The notes under the pieces: generated by a model
What the model saw: the letters and a program-made list of their open reading frames with translations, nothing else
Database searches by the model: none
Told to the model about the DNA's origin: nothing
Source: Hyphomicrobium sp.
GTDB taxonomy: Bacteria > Pseudomonadota > Alphaproteobacteria > Rhizobiales > Hyphomicrobiaceae
Length of the DNA stretch: 64,000 bases
Direction: 5' to 3'
NCBI GenBank assembly: GCA_031378895.1
Contig: JANNEP010000011.1
Location: 6,685 to 70,684, forward strand
Shown: positions 942-33,416 of the stretch, piece by piece
Layout of the letters: each line of letters begins with the position of its first letter
How positions within the stretch are numbered: position 1 is the stretch's first letter
Position numbers and translations under genes: made by a program

Positions 942-1141
942 ATTCCCCTCCCCCTCGCGGGGAGGGGTTAGGGGTCGTGGGACGCAGGGCAACAGGTCTC
1001 ATGATCGTCATTCCTGCTTTACCACCAAAGTCATCCCGGGGCTTGTCCCCGGGATGACATTGAAAAATCGCGGCAATCCCACACAGCACCACTTTTGTCC
1101 TCACCCACCCCTAGCCCCTCCCCGTCGAGGGGAGGGGGATT
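942..1141. repeat. Inverted pair of CCCCTCCCC-type palindromic repeats (942-981, 1104-1141) enclosing a perfect CGTC-type hairpin (1030-1058)
   Basis: TTCCCCTCCCCCTCGCGGGGAGGGGTTAGGGG...GGG versus CCCACCCCTAGCCCCTCCCCGTCGAGGGGAGGGGGA; central GTCATCCCGGGG-CTTGT-CCCCGGGATGAC (12-bp stem). Confidence 0.85.
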
Positions 1142-1171: not shown

Positions 1172-2245
1172 CTACGACGACAACCCGCCACCCAGTGTCG
1201 GCACATCGAGCACGCCGAAGCCGTAGTGGCGCAGCCATTTGAGATCGCCCGAGAAGAACGCGCGCAAATCCGGGATGCCATATTTCAGCATCGTCAAGCG
1301 GTCTAAGCCCATGCCGAAGGCGAAACCCTGGTACTTTTCCGGATCGAGCCCGCAGTTGCGCAGCACATTGGGATGCACCATGCCGCAACCCAAAATTTCG
1401 AGCCATTGCCCGGGCTTGCCGATCGCCTCGGCGCCGATGTCGACTTCCATTGACGGCTCGGTGAACGGGAAGTGTGAGGCGCGGAACCGCATCTTGACGT
1501 CGTCGACCTCAAAAAACGCCTTGCAGAATTCCTGCAGCACCCATTTGAGGTGCCCCATGTGCGTCGTCTCGTCGATGACGAGACCTTCGATCTGGTGAAA
1601 CATCGGCGTATGCGTTTGGTCGCTGTCGCAACGATAGACGCGGCCCGGCGCGATGATTCGTATCGGCGGCTTCTGGCTCATCATCGTGCGGATCTGTACC
1701 GGGCTCGTATGCGTGCGCAGGAGCAGCCGCTTCCCATCCACACACGGCGAAAAATAAAACGTATCGTGATCCTGGCGCGCCGGATGCTCGGCCGGAATAT
1801 TGAGGCGATCGAAATTCATGGCGTCGGTTTCGATATCGGGGCCTTCCGCGACCGCGAACCCCATATCGGCGAAGATCTCGATGACCTCATCGAGCACCTG
1901 ACTGACGGGATGAATACGCCCCTCGGCCTGCGGACCGGCGCGCACCGGCAACGTGACGTCGGCGCGTTCGGTTTTCAGGCGCGCGTCGAGAGCCGCGGTC
2001 TCTAGCACAGCTTTGCGCGCGTCCAGCGCGTCCGAGACTTTGGCCTTCAACGTGTTGACCGTTTGGCCGAAAGCCTTGCGGTCTTCGACGGCAAGCGTGC
2101 CGAGCCTACTCATCAGCTCAGTGACGTGGCCCTTTTTGCCAAGCGCCGCGACGCGCACGGCCTCAATCGCTCCCAGATCACCGGCAGCGGCAATCTCGCC
2201 CAGCAGTTCGGTTTCGAGCGTGGAAAGGTCGGTCGACGTCGTCAT
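1172..2245 (-). CDS. pheS: Phenylalanyl-tRNA synthetase alpha subunit
   Basis: [39 protein letters not shown] motifs; start chosen at MTTSTDL (2245) because the longer ORF start lies in a repeat. Confidence 0.97.
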
Positions 2246-2268
2246 GGGAGGTCGCGCCTCTCGAAAAT

Positions 2269-2393
2269 TGTCATCCTCGGGCTCGTCCCGAGGATCCATT
2301 CGTCAGCGAGTCCGGGACGTAGCGCATTTGAACCGGCCGCGACGCCGGGACCTTGTGGCACAATGGATCCTGGGCACAAGGCCCAGGATGACA
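2269..2393. repeat. CGTC/TGTC-type REP doublet (inverted pair)
   Basis: TGTCATCCTCGGGCTCGTCCCGAGGATCCAT (2269-2299) and reverse copy ATGGATCCTGGGCACAAGGCCCAGGATGACA (2363-2393). Confidence 0.85.
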
Positions 2394-2439
2394 TTGTTGA
2401 TTGGGGTTATTGGCGGAGACATCGCCTCGACCCCGCGCT

Positions 2440-2480
2440 GGCGGCTGGCTCCCCGGAGGGGAGCCGCCCGGGCCGAAAAA
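2440..2480 (+). repeat. Bulged GNA-triloop hairpin repeat, copy 1
   Basis: GGCG-GCTG-GCTCCCC-GGA-GGGGAGC-CGCC followed by AAAAAGGAC. Confidence 0.7.
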
Positions 2481-2498
2481 GGACCGAAGCGCAAACAA

Positions 2499-2900
2499 TC
2501 AAGCCGCCTTCTTGGCCTTATCCGCGTCCTTCTTGGCGACCGGCGATGATGCAGCCTTCGCCGCCTTATCGACCAGCGCCTTGAAGGCCTCCGGATCCTT
2601 GATGGCGATATCCGACAGCATCTTGCGATCGACATCGACACCGAGGTTGGTCAGGCCGTTGATAAAGCGCCCGTAGGTCAGCCCGTGCTCTCTGCACCCG
2701 GCGTTGATGCGCTGGATCCACAAAGCGCGGAACGTCCGCTTCTTCAGTTTGCGGCCGGTGTAGGCGTATTGCTGCGCCTTCTCGACCGCCTGTTTGGCGA
2801 CGCGGATCGTATTCTTGCGGCGGCCGTAATAGCCCTTCGCGGCTTTGAGAACTTTCTTATGCTTGGCGTGGGCGGTAACGCCGCGTTTGACGCGTGCCAT
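2499..2900 (-). CDS. rplT: 50S ribosomal protein L20
   Basis: [28 protein letters not shown]...[11 protein letters not shown]. Confidence 0.99.
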
Positions 2901-2957
2901 GGGAGGATGCTCCTCAGTATGTTTGCAACTTCAAGATGGGACGAGCTCGGTGCTCCT

Positions 2958-3007
2958 GCGTTTGCGGCCGGCTCCCCGCAGGGGAGTCGCAAGCGCGAAA
3001 CAAAGAG
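2958..3007 (+). repeat. Bulged GNA-triloop hairpin repeat, copy 2
   Basis: GCGTTTGCG-GCCG-GCTCCCC-GCA-GGGGAGT-CGCAAGCGC then GAAACAAAGAG. Confidence 0.8.
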
Positions 3008-3013
3008 CCCGCG

Positions 3014-3214
3014 CTAGCGGGCGTACGGCATGTACTTCTTGACGATCTTGGCGTCGGACTCACTCAAGATCCCGGTGCCGCGCGCCTTCTGGACGAACTT
3101 CGCCGTCCGCTTGATCATGCCGTGACGTTTTCCGGCCTGTCCGGCTTTGACTTTGCCGGAGGCCGTCATCTTGAAGCGCTTTTTGGCGCCACTCTTGGTC
3201 TTCATTTTAGGCAT
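3014..3214 (-). CDS. rpmI: 50S ribosomal protein L35
   Basis: [23 protein letters not shown]... Confidence 0.99.
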
Positions 3215-3535
3215 TTTGCTTATGTCCTTTATTCTCGCTCGCGGGCCGCGTCGGACGTTTCGCGCTTGCGCGCATCACGTCCTGGCCCTTCGCCCACCCG
3301 AGCGGAGCTCAGACAGTAGGAGACGGCGCGCTTGGCGCGGCCGCTTTGCGTCCACGGACCCGTTGGGTCCGAAGTGCAAAGTGTCAGCGCCTGAGCGGAT
3401 TGAAACTGCCTCGCAGCCACGGACCGGCGGTCCGTAGACACTGTGGCGAGCTTCAAGGCGCTGCGTGCCCAGGTCCGTCTTCGGACCTCAAAAGAGAAGT
3501 CCGTTTCCGGGCCTTAAGTGCGGGAATTTTCCTAC

Positions 3536-3586
3536 GTGGCGTGCGGCCGGCTCCCGGAACGGGAGTCGCACGCCACCAGTAAAGAG
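3536..3586 (+). repeat. Bulged GNA-triloop hairpin repeat, copy 3
   Basis: GTGGCGTGCG-GCCG-GCTCCCG-GAA-CGGGAGT-CGCACGCCAC then CAGTAAAGAG. Confidence 0.8.
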
Positions 3587-3751
3587 CCTACCCACACTCT
3601 CGGCGTCTCGTACGACGCCGGTCCTGCGAAGGGATGCTTTTTGCGGAAATCGCTGATTTATCAAAAGCATACAAACCGCCACGGCATGCCTCGCCGGGCG
3701 GCTCTGAGGTTTCTATAGTCGAGACACGACAAACGCGCAACTGGGCTCATC

Positions 3752-3801
3752 GCGCCCCGCGGCCAGCTCCACGCAGGGGAGTCGCCGGGCGCCAACAAGG
3801 A
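3752..3801 (+). repeat. Bulged GNA-triloop hairpin repeat, copy 4
   Basis: GCGCCCCGCG-GCCA-GCTCCAC-GCA-GGGGAGT-CGCCGGGCGC then CAACAAGGA. Confidence 0.8.
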
Positions 3802-3809
3802 CTGCCTCA

Positions 3810-4352
3810 ATGACAAGTCACGATACCGCTCACCTCGCCGACAAATGGTTCGCTAAGCGCCACGACGCGTTGTCTCCGAGCGAGCGCCTGATCCTCGATG
3901 CGCTCCACGCCCGCACCCACATCGCCCGCGCGCCCACCCCGCTCGACGCCAAAACATTTGGCGAGCGCATGGCCGACCGGGTGGCGGAGTTCGGCGGCTC
4001 GTGGACATTCATCATGCTGTTCGGCGCCTTCCTGGTGGCGTGGGCGCTGATCAACACGGCGATCCTCTCTGGCTCCGCCTTCGATCCCTACCCGTACATT
4101 TTTCTGAACCTGCTGCTATCGATGATCGCCGCAATTCAAGCGCCGATCATCATGATGTCGCAAAACCGCCAAGGTAAAAAAGACCGCGACAACGCCGAGC
4201 ACGACTACGAGGTCAACCTCAAATCCGAGCTCGAAATCATGGGCCTGCACGAAAAGTTCGACGCGCTGCGAGCTGAGCAGATCACGCGGCTGCTCGCCTA
4301 TCAGGCCGAACAGATGGAAATCTTGACGAGGTTGCTGGAGCGGGGGCGGTAG
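3810..4352 (+). CDS. DUF1003 family membrane protein
   Basis: TFGERMADRVAEFGGSWTF...FDPYPYIFLNLLLSMIAAIQAPIIMMSQNRQ signature. Confidence 0.92.
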   Translation: MTSHDTAHLADKWFAKRHDALSPSERLILDALHARTHIARAPTPLDAKTFGERMADRVAEFGGSWTFIMLFGAFLVAWALINTAILSGSAFDPYPYIFLNLLLSMIAAIQAPIIMMSQNRQGKKDRDNAEHDYEVNLKSELEIMGLHEKFDALRAEQITRLLAYQAEQMEILTRLLERGR

Positions 4353-4431
4353 GTAAAACTTTCAGGACATACTGCAGCCCGCCCACCCCGCTTCATGAAA
4401 ACGAAGAACCGTAGGGCGGAATAGGCGCGGT

Positions 4432-4480
4432 CACTTTCTTGCGCTGGCGACACGCCTCCGGCGCGCCGGCCGCCAGCGCA
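4432..4480 (-). repeat. Bulged GNA-triloop hairpin repeat, copy 5 (reverse orientation)
   Basis: Minus strand: TGCGCTGGCG-GCCG-GCGCGCC-GGA-GGCGTGT-CGCCAGCGCA then AGAAAGTG. Confidence 0.75.
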
Positions 4481-4536
4481 AATAAGAGATCGTGGCGAGT
4501 TATGCCGGCCTGACGCGATGACGCTGCCACATCTCA

Positions 4537-4689
4537 CGTCATCCTCAAACGCGCTCGCCCCTTGGCGACGCGCGTTTGGGGATCCAGCGCAAAGCTCGTC
4601 GCAGACACCAAATACTTTGAGCCTTCGGCACTCCTGACGCTGGATCCCCGAAGCAGCGCGCAAGGGAGCGCGCAGCTTCGAGGATGACG
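4537..4689. repeat. CGTC-type REP doublet with extended internal hairpins
   Basis: CGTCATCCTC-[AAACGCGC..GCGCGTTT]-GGGGATCCAGCG and reverse CGTCATCCTC-[GAAGC..GCTTC]-GGGGATCCAGCG. Confidence 0.8.
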
Positions 4690-4753
4690 ACGTAACTTCT
4701 GCTGCCGATTACCGATTGCCGAATTGCCTATTGCCCCACTTCCCCCGCCGCCC

Positions 4754-4790
4754 AAAACAAGAACGCCAGCTCGCATAGCGAACCGGCGTT
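4754..4790 (-). terminator. Intrinsic terminator downstream of the cNMP-binding gene
   Basis: Minus strand AACGCCGGTTCGC-TAT-GCGAGCTGGCGTT followed by CTTGTTTT. Confidence 0.6.
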
Positions 4791-4882
4791 TCATTTAGCC
4801 CTCTCGGCACTATAGCAAGACTACCACGTTGGAGCGGTGCGCTCCACATCAATCAGCCTTAACGCAACAGCAAGTTATCCCC

Positions 4883-4931
4883 GCGCACGGCGGCCGGCTC
4901 TCGGTACGAGAGTCGCCGTGCGCAACTAAAG
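4883..4931 (+). repeat. Bulged GNA-triloop hairpin repeat, copy 6
   Basis: GCGCACGGCG-GCCG-GCTCTCG-GTA-CGAGAGT-CGCCGTGCGC then AACTAAAG (tail overlaps the stop codon at 4926-4928). Confidence 0.85.
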
Positions 4932-5312
4932 TTGATCGTTCATGCGTCTGATGCGCGCCGTCAGCAGACGCATAACGCGCAGCGCGAATTCGGGATCGTC
5001 GCGGACCAGTGCCAGAAACGTTGGCTTGTCGATTGCGACGACTTCGGTTGGCTCGGCTGCGATCGCGGCGGCGCTACGATTGCCGCCATCGATCAGCGCC
5101 ATCTCGCCGAAAATGCCACCCGCGCGGACGTTTTCAAGCACCGTGCCGTAGGTGATCACGTCGACGCGGCCCTTTGCGACCATGTACATCACCGCCGCTG
5201 CTTCATCCGCGAGGAACACCTTTTCCCCGGCGTCGAAGTGCTTGTACGGCGCCCCGAGGCGATCGAGCTTGGTGAAGTCGAACGGCGTGTCGTCTGACAT
5301 ATCGTCGGGCAT
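4926..5312 (-). CDS. Stand-alone cyclic nucleotide-binding (cNMP) domain protein, 128 aa
   Basis: GGIFGEMALIDGGNRSAAAIA phosphate-binding cassette; no HTH; start MPDDMSDD with GAGAGG RBS. Confidence 0.85.
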   Translation of the reverse strand: MPDDMSDDTPFDFTKLDRLGAPYKHFDAGEKVFLADEAAAVMYMVAKGRVDVITYGTVLENVRAGGIFGEMALIDGGNRSAAAIAAEPTEVVAIDKPTFLALVRDDPEFALRVMRLLTARIRRMNDQL

Positions 5313-5388
5313 TATGAGCCTCTCGCGCAAAGGCGTTGCGGATGCCAGGCTAGGTCCACAGCCGGCGCAAGGCAAAAGAAAACCGCAA

Positions 5389-5481
5389 GGCGCCGGCGGC
5401 CGGCTCGACGCCAATGCGCGTGGGGTTGGTGGGGCGGCCACGCGCCAGAATAGAGGAGCGTCGCCGGCGCCCAACAAAGAG
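5389..5481 (+). repeat. Bulged hairpin repeat, copy 7 (expanded loop)
   Basis: GGCGCCGGCG-GCCG-GCTC-[~50 nt incl. GCGCGTGG/CCACGCGC stem]-GAGCGT-CGCCGGCGCC then CAACAAAGAG. Confidence 0.7.
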
Positions 5482-5484
5482 TCC

Positions 5485-6027
5485 TTACTTCGGCGCCAGC
5501 ACCATCACCATCTGCTTGCCCTCGAAGCGCGGCTCGCTCTCGACTTTGGCGATCGCCTCGGTATCGGCCTTGACCCGCTGCAGCACCGCCATCCCAAGCT
5601 GCGAGTGGGCCATTTCGCGGCCGCGGAAGCGCAGCGTCAGCTTGACCTTGTCGCCCTCTTCGAAAAAACGGCGGATCGCCCGCATCTTGACGTCGTAGTC
5701 GTGATCATCGATGCCGGGCCGCATCTTGATCTCCTTCAACTCGACGATCTTCTGGTTCTTGCGGGCTTCGGCAGCCTTCTTCTGTTCTTGGAATTTGAAC
5801 TTGCCGAAATCGAGGATCTTGCACACCGGCGGTTCAGCGTCCGGCGAGATCTCAACGAGGTCGAGGCCAGCCGCTTCAGCGCGGGCGATGGCATCGAATT
5901 TAGCGACGACGCCGACGTTTTGTCCGGTCTCGTCGATCAGTCGTACTTCGCGGGCCCGGATCTGGTCGTTGATTTTGGGGCCCGAGGGTTCCCGGCTCTG
6001 GGGCTCGGGGCGCATAGGCTTGCGGAT
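5485..6027 (-). CDS. infC: Translation initiation factor IF-3 (probable ATC start)
   Basis: [14 protein letters not shown]...[24 protein letters not shown]...[10 protein letters not shown]; GAAGGAG 8 nt before in-frame ATC at 6027. Confidence 0.97.
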
Positions 6028-6222
6028 GGGGTCATCTCCTTCAGTAGTTGCACGGGGCCGGACGCACATTTCCACTCAATCAGCGGACTCGGCGCTAAGC
6101 CAAAATGAGGATTGGGAACAAAGGCCGCGAAGTCAAGCGGGGGAGGGTCTTACAACCCGCCGCAAGCCCGCAATTTCGCTCGCTATCGTTGCTGTAGACA
6201 CACGATTTTAGCGATTCCAGTC

Positions 6223-29586: not shown

Positions 29587-29682
29587 GCCGTCAAAGTCTC
29601 CCGGGGGTGTTCGAGCGTGTCCGATTGTCCCAGAGTTTATATCAGGTTGCACGCGCCGTCAGTCACCCACGCGACACGGGCA

Positions 29683-29806
29683 CTCTGTTGGGCGCTGCCG
29701 ACTCCCCTTACAGAGTGCCGACCGGCAGCGCCGGAAGTCCGGAGCTTGCGGCCGGCTGCGCGGAGCGCAGCCGCTGGGCGCTAGGCATTAGAGAGTCGCA
29801 CGCGCC
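29683..29806. repeat. Inverted doublet of the bulged GNA-triloop hairpin repeat
   Basis: Minus copy GGCGCTGCCG-GTCG-GCACTCT-GTA-AGGGGAGT-CGGCAGCGCC-CAACAGAG (29683-29732); plus copy GCG-GCCG-GCTGCGC-GGA-GCGCAGC-CGC (29748-29774); extra 3' half GAGAGTCGCACGCGCC (29791-29806). Confidence 0.75.
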
Positions 29807-29818
29807 AGGAAAAGCGCA

Positions 29819-30065
29819 TCACAACCGCTACTTCGCAAATGCGCGACCCGAACCCGATTTGAGATATTTCTCGAACGCGAATGCCTGTTTCTCGTCCGAA
29901 AAGGCAACGTAGGTTTTGACCGTCCAAGGAGCAAATTTGGTTGTGTTGGGATACTTCCAGCGCGTTGTGCTTCTTCAAACGCGCATCGACGTCATCCGTT
30001 ACGCCAGTATAAAAGCGGTCGGGAAAGCTGATGCTTTGAAGGATGCAAACAAATTTCAAGCGCAT
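29819..30065 (-). pseudogene. Small GIY-YIG nuclease pseudogene
   Basis: Removing 1 nt at ~29946 gives MRLKFVCILQS...RFYTGVTDDVDARLKKHN...SHTTKFAPWTVKTYVAFSDEKQAFAFEKYLKSGSGRAFAK*RL; in-frame TAG at 29828-29830. Confidence 0.85.
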
Positions 30066-32333: not shown

Positions 32334-33416
32334 ATGCCGAATTTCGTATCCTTCATGGAGTGCGTGAATGGTCCAAGTCCGGGGTGTCTCACGCTCGCCG
32401 AATTTCTCATTCCGGTCGTCCTCTTCGCGGCGTTGATCGCCGCTGGCGTTTCGGTCGCGCGGCGGAATCGCGACGCGTACCTGCGCCTGCTCCGGCGCGG
32501 GTTTCTTGCAAGCCTGACAGTTCTCGCCCTCAGCGTTATCGCCATTGGCTGGTTTCTCGCCACCGATCCTAAGACGGTCACCGGTGTTGAAACATCTGCG
32601 GCGTCGCAGACGCTGTGGATCCTCGCCATCACCCTGTTTGGAACGGGATTTTCACTGCTTGTTGGGATGGTGGGGTTCTGTCTCGGCGGCTGGCTCTCAG
32701 GGCGCTTCAAGCCAGGCCAGCTGAATTCAGGCCAGCTTAATTCAGGCCAGCTTAATTCGGGCGATGTAAAGCGCCCAAGCGCCCAAGGCCTCGTCATCGC
32801 CATCGACGGACCGGCGGCGTCCGGCAAGGGCACGCTTGCCAAGCGCATTGCGGCGCACCTTAATCTTCCCTGCCTCGACACAGGCTTGCTCTACCGTGCC
32901 GTCGCCCGCGACGTCATTGAGCGCGGCGGAAAACTCGAGGATGTCCCGGCGGCTGTCGCCGCGGCGCGAAGTCTTGATCCCAAATCTCTGGATGATCCGG
33001 CACTCCGCGGCCCGGCGGCTGGAGATGCAGCGTCGATGATCGCCAAGATCCCTGATGTGCGCGCGGCCCTCCTCGACTATCAGCGCACGTTCGCGTGCCA
33101 GCCCGGCGGTGCCGTGCTCGACGGCCGCGACATCGGCACCGTCGTCTGCCCCGGCGCCGATATCAAAATTTATGTGACCGCCACGCCCGAAGAACGGGCC
33201 CGCCGCCGCCACCTCGAGCACACGTCGCGTGGCGAGACCGTGGCCTACGACACCGTGCTGGCTGACATCCGCCGCCGCGACGCCCGCGACTCCGGCCGCG
33301 ACATTGCGCCGATGGAAGCGGCGGCCGACGCGGTTCGGCTCGATACGACAAAGCTCGACGCGGATCAGGCGTTTGCGGCGGCGTTGAAGCTGATCGGGAA
33401 GCGTAGGGCGCATTAG
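32334..33416 (+). CDS. cmk: Cytidylate kinase with in-frame N-terminal membrane domain
   Basis: IAIDGPAASGKGT at aa 154+, LDTGLLYRA, LDGRDIGTVV; first ~125 aa contain three hydrophobic segments. Confidence 0.9.
   Translation: MPNFVSFMECVNGPSPGCLTLAEFLIPVVLFAALIAAGVSVARRNRDAYLRLLRRGFLASLTVLALSVIAIGWFLATDPKTVTGVETSAASQTLWILAITLFGTGFSLLVGMVGFCLGGWLSGRFKPGQLNSGQLNSGQLNSGDVKRPSAQGLVIAIDGPAASGKGTLAKRIAAHLNLPCLDTGLLYRAVARDVIERGGKLEDVPAAVAAARSLDPKSLDDPALRGPAAGDAASMIAKIPDVRAALLDYQRTFACQPGGAVLDGRDIGTVVCPGADIKIYVTATPEERARRRHLEHTSRGETVAYDTVLADIRRRDARDSGRDIAPMEAAADAVRLDTTKLDADQAFAAALKLIGKRRAH

Follow-up and report, generated by a model that had tools for sequence, protein, structure and literature searches.

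The infC-rpmI-rplT-pheS region of Hyphomicrobium raises the question of what a short bulged hairpin is doing there in seven copies within 3 kb. The original prediction, made on the 64-kb stretch of DNA analysed here (the window), counted nine such hairpins and proposed a new REP-like mobile or regulatory element. Is the hairpin a device of this operon, a site kept by the host, or a mobile element?

We built a covariance model from six window copies, each of which scored 64-73 bits, and this model recovered the remaining three (A at 38 bits, G at 20 bits, and I at 19 bits). Because the next-best unrelated match in the 64 kb reached only 14.6 bits (E=0.16), the window holds exactly nine copies, seven of them within 3 kb, and chance is no explanation. 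All nine predicted copies were present at, or a few bases from, the predicted positions. A single copy, at 4441, had been marked as reversed; copy H is reversed as well.

The unit measures ~52-54 nt, made up of a 41-nt hairpin and a tail. Its 5' C is followed by the outer stem of 9-10 bp, by GCCG as a bulge confined to the 5' side, by an inner stem of 7 bp (GCTCNNN-GNA-NNNGAGT) with a fixed G.T closing pair and a GNA triloop, by the 3' arm, and by the tail (C)AACAAAGAG, confirming the predicted architecture of two stems, bulge, triloop, and A-rich 3' end. The tail is 9-10 nt long, follows the consensus (C/A)A(A/C)NAAAGAG, and may be part of the element or of its target. In column profiles the 5' end reads C followed by GCGCC and the 3' end AA.CAAAGAG, and conservation extends exactly from the 5' C to the last base of the tail. 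A 54-nt unit equals 18 codons.

The clustered copies differ in detail. Copy A (2435-2501, plus strand; 38.4 bits, E=1.5e-7) has the arms GCGCTGGCG and CGCC-AGCGC, the latter split by a 19-nt insertion (2469-2487), with bulge GCTG and inner stem GCTCCCC-GGA-GGGGAGC; once the insertion is removed, GCGCTGGCG and CGCCAGCGC pair perfectly. Its tail AAACAATCA includes the rplT stop codon (2499-2501), and locus L120 has an orthologue of this copy 3' of rplT. Copy B (2958-3007, plus; 73.3 bits) lies in the rpmI-rplT spacer ~6 nt from the rpmI stop, reads GCGTTTGCG-GCCG-GCTCCCC-GCA-GGGGAGT-CGCAAGCGC-GAAACAAAGAG, and folds as DNA at -14.7 kcal/mol on its own strand versus -10.2 on the opposite one; the same site in L122-L125 is occupied by a copy with a different outer stem. 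Copy C (3536-3586, plus; 72.8 bits), in the long spacer from the rpmI start to a DUF1003 gene, combines a perfect 10-bp outer stem GTGGCGTGCG with a GAA loop (DNA fold -19.7 kcal/mol, z=-5.2) and has no counterpart in the relatives L121-L125. Copy D (3752-3802, plus; 64.5 bits), with bulge GCCA, sits immediately 5' of the DUF1003 gene start (3810), and its tail CAACAAGGAC provides AAGGA ~8 nt 5' of the ATG. On the minus strand ~80 nt past the DUF1003 stop, copy E (4432-4479; 65.1 bits) was detected as an inverted repeat; its inner stem is GCGCGCC-GGA-GGCGTGT, and its outer stem GCGCTGGCG is identical to that of copy A. Copy F (4883-4934, plus; 68.6 bits; DNA fold -20.9 kcal/mol, z=-5.1) has a tail, AACTAAAGTTG, that contains the stop codon (4926-4928) of a cNMP-binding gene recognized by its ORF and a Pfam match.

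Copy G (5389-5481, plus; 19.9 bits for the 3' half) lies after infC, its end 3 nt from the stop codon, and has the usual outer stem GGCGCCGGCG, bulge, and tail; its loop holds a nested 40-nt second hairpin module with an A-rich tail of its own (5416-5455, GCGCGTGGGGTTGGTGGGGCGGCCACGCGC-CAGAATAGAG). This module recurs in L082:5701-5798, and further long forms occur in L066, L082, and L099. Away from the cluster, copy H (29681-29732, minus; 64 bits), whose inner stem is degenerate, and copy I (29748-29774, plus) form a head-to-head doublet with H on the left. Copy I is a short form (19.4 bits over 29740-29797): its outer stem has 3 bp (GCG/CGC), its bulge reads GCCG and its inner stem GCTGCGC-GGA-GCGCAGC, the G.T pair is missing, and the tail, which reaches ~29797, has diverged. 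Copies D (one per stem) and H contain one or two mismatches each. The predicted placement relative to stop codons was right, and the tails of F and A in fact contain the stops.

Pairing is maintained across the family: 95.6% of cells are paired, compared with 69.9% in shuffles and 35-48% when partners are slid, and both sides have changed in 477 cells versus 120 in shuffles, in support of the predicted covariation. The accompanying statement that structure rather than sequence is conserved was half correct. Covariation is free in the outer stem and in three pairs of the inner stem, whereas GGCCGGCTC with the bulge, the bases of the stems, the closing G.T pair within GAGTCG, the GNA loop, and the tail are kept as sequence.

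The core pattern occurs in >119 genome stretches, and nearly all of these belong to Hyphomicrobium or Hyphomicrobiaceae. The model matched 207 times in these core-pattern loci and 237 more times in phage-like head-gene clusters (474 kb of IMG/VR contigs); 186 of 216 matches fell outside predicted CDS. In the Rfam scan of the window two tRNAs alone reached the gathering score, and a search of 2200-6200 at E up to 5 gave three sub-threshold matches, all far under gathering; one of them, the S-element (21 of 47 bits), overlaps copy G at its edge. The hairpins form a real, dispersed family confined to one bacterial family and, as had been suspected, without a counterpart in Rfam.

Several features distinguish the two strands. 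The closing pair is G.T in 202/206 copies; corrected for locus ascertainment, that position is T in ~73% and C in 8%. The triloop is GNA in 63 of the 86 copies not selected on the loop, and the inner stem has 30 G.T wobbles versus 7 A.C pairs. Owing to the triloop and the G.T pair, folding favours the sense strand in 121-125 of 128 copies, with a margin of 2.6-3.3 kcal/mol over the antisense strand, which strengthens the earlier idea of a single-stranded DNA element. Element orientation tracks local GC skew independently of gene strand. With 8-kb blocks as a proxy for replication direction, the sense strand was on the C-rich strand in 42/60 singletons at |skew| >=0.02 and in 24/30 at >=0.04. 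The better-folding strand mostly coincides with the C-rich strand, which is the leading-strand template, whereas the IS608 paradigm has the reverse arrangement. An alternative source of this bias could be selection that keeps stable hairpins off the lagging-strand template.

Copies also lie in coding sequence. In-frame copies occur in uvrA, ileS, dnaE, uvrB, lysS, mnmG, an oxoprolinase gene, mazG, and a terminase gene, each of which was verified to be a real gene, and Pfam domains flank the copies on both sides in IleRS, DnaE, MnmG, LysRS, oxoprolinase, and MazG. The uvrA gene has an in-frame doublet in L038 and a C-terminal copy in L077, with neither in the L042 orthologue, and the UvrA alignment contains insertions of 43 and 14 amino acids relative to orthologues. 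Doublets are arranged head-to-head in 31 cases and tail-to-tail in 3, with core-to-core gaps favouring 17-29 and 47-50 nt; there are 58 tandem pairs, and tandem arrays have formed. One copy is carried by a 155-nt MITE with TA ends, which is itself amplified in one MAG, and two contigs that are 99.9% identical are rearranged relative to each other exactly at an element. No clean pair of filled and empty sites at near-identity was obtained, and no target-site duplication was evident beyond tandem-array effects. Being dispersed, and in frame within essential genes, the family resembles a small REP-like mobile element rather than a regulator of a ribosomal-protein operon.

Of the two options originally offered, mobile or regulatory, the first is the best reading. 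We consider it fairly probable that the hairpin is a non-autonomous, REP-like and RPE-like mobile palindrome of Hyphomicrobium and the Hyphomicrobiaceae, and probably processed while its DNA is single-stranded and folded. The copies would be made or moved by an enzyme that is provided in trans and reads the folded single strand. Such an enzyme would need the bulge, the base of each stem, the position of the G.T pair (GAGTC), and the loop as sequence; we propose that the stems covary because it would need the remaining stem bases only to pair. The infC-rpmI-rplT-pheS cluster would then represent a lineage-specific accumulation in tolerated spacers just past stop codons, and any effect on the stability of mRNA 3' ends would be a by-product.

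Some sites are old, with the rpmI-rplT position occupied across species and terminase copies common to three lineages, and this bears on a different reading, in which the hairpin is a DNA site maintained by the host, not or no longer mobile, with the hairpin or cruciform kept for binding or structuring. Consistent with such a site, orthologous copies that differ at 15 of 41 nt are fully compensated and perfectly paired, though they diverge faster than their flanks (90-95% identical), and this compensated divergence could mean host-level selection on the hairpin instead of selfish turnover. A link to CcrM methylation is a possible variant: in each canonical copy the conserved T of the G.T pair creates a GANTC site (GAGTC), and this T is favoured over a perfectly pairing C even in copies not selected at that position. 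The window has 78 GANTC sites where 291 +/- 17 are expected, a 3.7-fold depletion, yet the motif occurs in the hairpin of five canonical copies and in the tail of two more. Copies E, A, and I, however, have no GANTC in the hairpin, and the rpmI-rplT copy decays without compensation in close strains, from 56.8 to 48.5 to 33.3 bits. Related species differ in which orthologous intergenic sites carry a copy, and most such sites are not shared; in-frame copies in many unrelated essential genes, tandem arrays, and a copy within another MITE would not be expected of a host site. We know of no binding protein for the hairpin, and we regard this reading as unlikely.

We judge it less likely still that the hairpin acts at the RNA level in the infC-rpmI-rplT-pheS and other operons, as a 3'-end stabilizer, an RNase processing site, or an unconventional terminator. 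The observations that fit this role come largely from gene context. In the cluster, six of seven copies come after a gene and share one reading direction on the mRNA. Genome comparison showed enrichment within ~15 nt of stop codons, on either side of them, and in convergent spacers (45, versus 26 divergent). Both RNA senses fold at ~-26 to -29 kcal/mol, and a small hairpin over the rpmI stop scores as terminator-like together with the T-rich head of copy B. The common orientation relative to transcription held in the window but not across genomes, where no preference relative to genes was seen (23 versus 31 in tandem-gene contexts), and copies also lie 5' of start codons and within ORFs. On the gene-sense strand the stem has the T-rich tract on its 5' side, neither sense has a U-tract after the stem, and terminator prediction called none of the copies in either direction, in agreement with the original view that the polarity is wrong for an intrinsic terminator. 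In the window, the mRNA is antisense to the strand that bears the G.T pair and the GNA loop, and no Rfam family corresponds to such an RNA. Relatives with 86-93% identical L20 retain the operon with zero or one copy where the window has seven, which does not support a regulatory role for the infC-rpmI-rplT-pheS operon. The family is neither operon-specific nor a terminator.

The proposed HUH/RAYT link was not confirmed: regular-expression and tblastn searches of the window and of ~1.3 Mb of element-bearing loci revealed no Y1/RAYT ORF and none of IS200 type, and no gene family recurred next to the element but the ubiquitous SDR and ABC superfamilies. The search for a nuclease or transposase gene flanked by copies yielded one candidate, a stand-alone GIY-YIG ORF (PF01541; 29831-30065, minus strand) ~35 nt from copy I of the H/I doublet. 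Known Ssn nucleases of the GIY-YIG type are flanked by hairpin repeats of their own, which they cleave as single-stranded DNA (PMC11893778), but that the element is the target of such a nuclease is very improbable, since the ORF is frameshifted in the window and has no homologue in 179 other element-bearing loci, the element occurs in just 3 of 80 metagenome loci of its homologues, its closest relatives (<=75% identical) are from Xanthobacteraceae, Parvibaculum, and Rhizobium, groups outside the element-bearing genomes found, with no Hyphomicrobium among the source-named matches, and the published Ssn targets are CGTC-tagged repeats (PMC11893778), a separate family present in the same window.

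Among known systems, integron attC sites resemble the element in keeping structure more than sequence, in extrahelical bases that define the active strand, and in their position right after ORFs. Unlike attC, the element has no R''/R' core sites: the head and tail consensus does not fit GTTRRRY, which copy G alone matches, by chance. Its neighbours are housekeeping genes (infC, rpmI, rplT, pheS) and not cassettes, copies lie within ORFs and in both orientations, and there is no integrase. IS200/IS605 elements and their MITEs (PATEs) have bulged sub-terminal hairpins that are read as single-stranded DNA by structure plus a few bases, and their orientation is tied to replication direction; their LE and RE differ and surround a tnpA/tnpB cargo or form a MITE of at least 100 nt. 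The element shares the bulged, imperfect hairpin and an orientation that follows GC skew, but its whole unit is one hairpin, searches gave no tnpA, and the strand that folds better is on the opposite template to IS608.

Rickettsia palindromic elements (RPE), ~100-150 nt long and restricted to Rickettsia, are translated as extra surface peptides and have, to our knowledge, no transposase; Ogata et al. reportedly described in 2000 their in-frame insertion into protein-coding genes, including essential ones. The element is likewise an alphaproteobacterial palindrome found in frame in functional genes, some of them essential, with no transposase known. At 54 nt and mostly intergenic, it differs from the RPE (RPE-1 to RPE-10), which we compared by description, and size and host argue against relatedness. 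RPE are mentioned alongside the CGTC/TGTC-tagged alphaproteobacterial REPs (Di Nocera 2013, PMC3733652), which are the NTS/SRM repeats cut by Ssn GIY-YIG nucleases (PMC11893778). Besides the tag, these repeats have a stem of 8-9 bp that opens with A-T pairs, a loop of 4-5 nt, and CCA as the tail. These REPs share with the element the host class, a mainly head-to-head dimer arrangement, and a conserved unpaired tail, and they co-occur with it in the window (1030-1058, 2269-2298, 2364-2393, and 4537-4689). The element has none of their tag, stem, loop, or tail features and no Ssn association beyond the frameshifted ORF, so that these true tagged REPs are clearly different and the predicted absence of GTAG/CGTC tags is confirmed.

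There is a close parallel with REP and REPIN sequences. REP elements are said to have been linked with RAYT transposases by Nunvar in 2010. Unlike them, the hairpin lacks a GTAG or CGTC tetranucleotide at its head; its stem is built in two tiers, with a one-sided bulge fixed at 4 nt, and is capped by a GNA triloop, while the A-rich tail measures 9-10 nt. In-frame copies in genes are frequent, and no RAYT was found in the ~1.3 Mb of loci. REPs and REPINs go with RAYT transposases of the Y1 HUH type (Bertels and Rainey 2011, PMC3116915; Ton-Hoang 2012, PMC3333891), of which the largest group (Group 1) is rare in Alphaproteobacteria (Bertels 2017, PMC5581495). The bulged hairpin of Hyphomicrobium is a repeat family not in Rfam, and like REPs and REPINs it is a short imperfect palindrome repeated many times, chiefly close to stop codons and just beyond genes, forms inverted doublets and arrays, is lineage-specific and vertically persistent, and has one strand that folds better, with an orientation linked to strand composition.

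All nine bulged hairpins named in the original prediction could be located in the window: copies A (2435-2501, +), B (2958-3007, +), C (3536-3586, +), D (3752-3802, +), E (4432-4479, -), F (4883-4934, +) and G (5389-5481, +), the seven that fall within 3 kb, and copies H (29681-29732, -) and I (29748-29774, +). The copy at 4441 (E) was rightly marked as reversed; copy H, which carried no such mark, is inverted as well and forms a head-to-head doublet with I. A covariance model seeded with six copies and run over the whole window with filters off scored the six seed copies at 64-73 bits, A at 38, G at 20 and I at 19, and found no further copy. Because nothing else exceeded 14.6 bits, nine is the full copy count in the window.

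The first 6.6 kb of the window, which lies on a 93-kb metagenome contig from freshwater sediment, carry pheT (ending at 883), pheS (1172-2299), rplT (2499-2900), rpmI (3014-3214), a cNMP-binding gene (4926 to about 5310) and infC (5485-6075), all on the minus strand, and a DUF1003 gene (3810-4352) on the plus strand. The stop codon of rplT lies inside the tail of copy A and that of the cNMP-binding gene inside the tail of copy F; these two stop codons now come from the elements' own tails. Copy A has a 19-nt insertion in its 3' arm; with the insertion taken out, the two arms pair perfectly and match those of copy E exactly. Copy G holds a second hairpin module inside its loop. This module (5416-5455) reads GCGCGTGG-GGTTGGTGGGGCGG-CCACGCGC plus an A-rich tail, with a loop rich in G-runs, and recurs, nested in the same way, in another genome (locus L082:5701-5798); composite long forms of 80-98 nt are also found at loci L066 and L099.

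The copies share a common plan. Read on the sense strand, an initial C is followed by an outer stem of 9-10 bp, by GCCG unpaired on the 5' side only, by a 7-bp inner stem GCTCNNN, a GNA loop and NNNGAGT, and by the outer 3' arm and the tail (C)AACAAAGAG. Conservation has sharp limits, set by the 5' C on one side and the tail's end on the other, with no information in the flanks. Among 141 distinct sequences, 95.6% of the helix cells held standard pairs, compared with 69.9% in column shuffles and 35-48% when partners were slid by 1-3 columns. Changes on both sides of a pair occurred in 477 cells, against 120 in shuffles, with double changes in nine of the ten outer-stem pairs and five of the seven inner-stem pairs, bearing out the proposal of covarying stems. 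The loci had been found with a pattern that fixes the bulge, GCTC, G.A and GAGTCG, and these features were re-estimated with the 5' half alone as the anchor. After this ascertainment correction, the position opposite the first inner-stem G is T in about 73% of cases and the perfectly pairing C in 8%, and GNA accounts for 63 of 86 triloops among copies not selected on the loop. From the covariation and the re-estimate together, the claim that structure, not sequence, is conserved stands for the middle of the stems, which is free as long as it pairs, and falls for the bulge, stem bases, G.T pair, loop and tail, which are kept as sequence.

As a result of these asymmetries, the sense strand folds better than its complement in 121-125 of 128 distinct hairpins; the advantage is 3.3 kcal/mol under RNA parameters and 2.6 kcal/mol under DNA parameters. 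The inner stem contains 30 G.T wobbles versus 7 A.C pairs, and the C(GNA)G loop is a classic, very stable DNA mini-hairpin. The outer stem is not an inverted target duplication made at insertion: a family consensus (GCGCCNGGCG) exists, different genomes share recurring sub-types, and no arm is present at the empty uvrA site of locus L042.

An attC-like site is dismissed by the missing core boxes and the wrong context. Intrinsic terminators fare no better, as a consensus terminator scan called none of the copies and across genomes there is no orientation bias relative to genes in tandem-gene spacers; the T-rich tract does lie 5' of the stem on the gene-sense strand, the polarity that the original prediction had judged wrong for a terminator. 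Separately, the rpmI stop codon is spanned by a 6-bp GC hairpin (3007-3022, minus strand); combined with the T-rich head of copy B, which comes next, it gets a terminator-like score. Relatives lack this hairpin. Searching the window against Rfam 15 returned only two tRNAs at the gathering score, and with E-values up to 5 the interval 2200-6200 gave three weak sub-threshold matches, none near the gathering score; the family is absent from Rfam.

Reading the hairpins as a regulatory element of the infC-rpmI-rplT-pheS operon is not supported by comparison across genomes. With genes called by a simple GC3-based finder that reproduces the known genes of the window, copies proved mostly intergenic and overrepresented up to about 15 nt to either side of stop codons. 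They lie in convergent spacers more often than in divergent ones (45 versus 26), and tandem-gene spacers show no preference for either orientation (23 versus 31). The fixed orientation relative to transcription is thus local to the window and lends no support to a function at the transcript level. Orthologous loci were reached through homologues of ribosomal protein L20, the best Hyphomicrobium-type matches being 80-95% identical to that of the window. Four of them (L122-L125, L20 88% identical) have a single copy over the whole infC-to-pheT region, at the rpmI-rplT site of copy B; L120 (93%) has one copy after rplT, at the site of copy A; L121 (90%) lacks a copy at the rpmI-rplT site. Since these relatives hold none or one copy and match only the A and B sites, the remaining five clustered copies are lineage-specific, and the cluster is best interpreted as copies that accumulated in this lineage in permissive spacers immediately past stop codons.

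We scanned one genome per species for exact matches to CGGCCGGCTCNNNGNANNNGAGTCG. At least 119 stretches matched. Almost every match listed belongs to Hyphomicrobium or Hyphomicrobiaceae; H. facile, H. sulfonivorans, Hyphomicrobium sp. GJ21 and D-2, and Filomicrobium are represented, as are many MAGs. The covariance model found 207 copies in these listed stretches (860 kb in all) and confirmed none of the few listed matches from other phyla except one 'Actinomycetota' contig. This contig (L061, CAVTWW010000013.1) has a perfect 69.5-bit copy, comes from a sample rich in Alphaproteobacteria and is probably a misbinned Hyphomicrobiaceae contig. Sixty stretches of IMG/VR contigs also matched, in which the model gives 237 copies in 474 kb, with a maximum of 17 in 14 kb. 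The three densest of these loci, whose proteins were scanned, are head-morphogenesis clusters (large terminase, portal, protease, HK97-type capsid, adaptor), that is, prophage-like or GTA-like regions of Hyphomicrobium genomes; among the IMG/VR contigs (L126-L185, e.g., L162, L131 and L129) we noted in-frame copies in the terminase and in an ORF extension after the portal gene. Our literature searches returned no described Hyphomicrobium REP or repeat of this bulged-hairpin kind. In the MAG JANLQP one hairpin copy sits in the middle of an approximately 155-nt MITE, whose imperfect terminal inverted repeats measure roughly 28 nt and which has TA at each end, an IS630/Tc1-like signature (L005:1-190, L035, L045:1340-1500, L069, L115 and L117); identical MITE copies lie at several contig ends, where they break the assembly.

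The arrangement of the copies and their presence inside genes point to mobility. Neighbouring copies are head-to-head, with tails outward, in 31 cases and tail-to-tail in 3; 58 pairs are direct tandems, many of them abutting, and loci L113, L009, L096 and L012 hold arrays of 4-8 units. About 30 of 216 model matches lie inside predicted ORFs, several of which are certainly real genes. A doublet adds 43 residues to the UvrA of L038 relative to 81%-identical orthologues, and the UvrA of L077 has one copy near its C-terminus that is missing in the L042 orthologue. Pfam domains flank the copies on both sides in IleRS, DnaE, LysRS, MnmG, oxoprolinase (two copies) and MazG, and precede the near-C-terminal copy of UvrB; the large terminase of three related clusters contains three copies. 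The unit measures 54 nt, or 18 codons, and in validated genes reads mostly ..APGGRLPxGESPGATK.. from sense copies and ..APSDSPxGSRPPGA.. from antisense copies. In-frame insertion into genes is a known behaviour of Rickettsia palindromic elements, and the in-gene copies are difficult to explain unless a mobile sequence inserted and selection then kept the tolerated frames. Doublets, lineage-variable copies and in-gene copies together support the proposal of a new REP-like mobile element.

Comparison of orthologous copies shows how they change. At shared sites, the hairpins diverge far more than their flanks, and always in a compensated manner: between L131 and L162, 15 of 41 nt of a terminase copy differ while the surrounding DNA is 90-95% identical. 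Such blocks of compensated change (L131:1901-1954, L162:12501-12554 and L129:8831-8883; window 2958-3007 and L122:4891-4944) suggest that whole hairpins were replaced or converted rather than mutated stepwise. Very close strains show uncompensated single changes, with scores falling from 56.8 to 48.5 to 33.3 bits. In one pair of contigs that are 99.3-99.9% identical (L158:1771-1905, L179:2031-2190), the sole difference lies exactly at the element and consists of a 30-nt gain and a rewritten 3' flank. Together, these observations suggest turnover by replacement or conversion among family members, plus slow decay.

Near-identical locus pairs yielded no clean insertion of the family (filled versus empty site); they gave a polymorphism of a CGTC-REP dimer and the one rearranged element. 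No target-site duplication was detected, the longest substring common to the 5' and 3' flanks being 4.6 versus 3.9 in controls, an excess due to tandem arrays. A search for excision variants in the source metagenome (Logan contigs, four runs) returned only cross-mapping from other species and copies. Contigs of all four runs do share a 130-nt skip (3486-3617) that spans copy C; it is not a precise excision, its support is thin (29-41 nt on the shorter side of the joint), and it probably represents a related strain without the segment.

Element orientation follows strand composition. With GC skew computed locally in 8-kb blocks and elements masked, orientation was associated with skew (p = 1.6e-7 by elements, p = 0.0013 by loci). 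The coding-strand share of the skew is near zero (-0.007), the association persists after its removal, and the majority gene strand is unrelated to orientation. Of 98 singletons, 61 have the sense strand on the C-rich strand; the counts are 42 of 60 at an absolute skew of 0.02 or more and 24 of 30 at 0.04 or more. Provided that skew reflects the direction of replication, the strand that folds better mostly serves as the leading-strand template. Two readings fit this bias: the antisense strand may insert into the lagging-strand template, as for IS608, or selection may act against the more stable hairpin on the lagging-strand template.

We regard a link to a putative HUH-type enzyme as a reasonable hypothesis. 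Motif regexes and tblastn with approximate E. coli RayT and IS608 TnpA sequences turned up no HUH/Y1 transposase (RAYT, IS200), either in the window or across roughly 1.3 Mb of element-bearing DNA, and clustering 669 predicted proteins of the loci gave no recurrent neighbour other than the SDR and ABC superfamilies. The largest RAYT group (Group 1) is reported to be rare in Alphaproteobacteria (Bertels et al., 2017, PMC5581495). A stand-alone GIY-YIG nuclease gene of the 79-aa type (29831-30065, minus strand; PF01541; nearest structure UPF0213 BH0048) is flanked by tRNA-Ala and by the H/I doublet, with copy I 35 nt away, and Ssn GIY-YIG nucleases cut CGTC-type hairpin repeats as single-stranded DNA (PMC11893778). 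A link to this gene is not supported: the gene is frameshifted in the window after ..KKHNA, other element-bearing loci contain no homologue, the element is present in only 3 of 80 GIY-YIG homologue loci, and the relatives, at most 75% identical, come where the source is named from Xanthobacteraceae, Parvibaculum and Rhizobium, not Hyphomicrobium.

The conserved T opposite the inner-stem G turns a possible G-C pair into G.T and creates GAGTC, a CcrM-type GANTC site. GANTC is depleted 3.7-fold in the window (78 sites versus 291 +/- 17 expected), yet the elements, less than 1% of its sequence, hold 7 of the 78 in hairpins or tails. A role for the methylation state of this site is speculation. A fuller scheme, which we consider unlikely, would be RAYT-free transposition or copy exchange through single-stranded DNA, in which a putative enzyme reads the bulged GNA-loop hairpin. 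Hemimethylation behind the replication fork would gate its activity, through the CcrM site that the obligatory G.T position creates; IS10 is gated by Dam. Cut-and-rejoin chemistry would swap whole hairpins between resident copies, and such swapping, if it occurs, would produce fully compensated block differences between orthologues despite nearly identical flanks.

The poorly charted 'untagged' bacterial palindromic repeats gain a well-defined family with a clear consensus and a defined host range, represented by more than 400 collected copies and a working covariance model. It combines traits usually described apart: REP/REPIN-like doublets, RPE-like in-frame colonisation of essential genes (UvrA, IleRS, DnaE, UvrB and others), a strand asymmetry of the ssDNA-hairpin type, and an orientation that tracks strand composition. 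Because this mix occurs without a RAYT found, in a class where the largest RAYT group is reported to be rare, Hyphomicrobium is a tractable place to seek the mobilising enzyme. In practice, the repeats break metagenome assemblies, cause spurious ORF extensions and extra peptides in annotated proteins, and inflate the apparent novelty of phage-like clusters.

Other repeats share the window. In the pheT-pheS spacer, two CCCCTCCCC-N4/5-GGGGAGGGG hairpins (945-967 and 1115-1138), which may be a third small palindrome family, flank a CGTC-type REP (1030-1058), and a tandem repeat, GGCCAGCT(G/T)AATTC(A/G), runs for three to four units at 32712-32760, apparently within an ORF. True TGTC/CGTC-tagged REPs, with the tag, an A-T-started stem and a CCA tail, lie at 1030-1058, 2269-2298, 2364-2393, 4537-4586 and 4641-4689, the pair within 4537-4689 being an inverted dimer of the CGTC type. 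The bulged hairpins are clearly distinct from them and, as predicted, lack the known REP tags. The tagged repeats belong to the CGTC super-family of Di Nocera (2013, PMC3733652) and are Ssn SRM targets. The bulged family works like REP/REPINs and Rickettsia palindromic elements but does not fit the sequence-based definition of tagged REP super-families (Di Nocera, 2013, PMC3733652); we file it as a REP-like element that is untagged, bulged and two-tiered and has RPE-like insertions in coding sequence.
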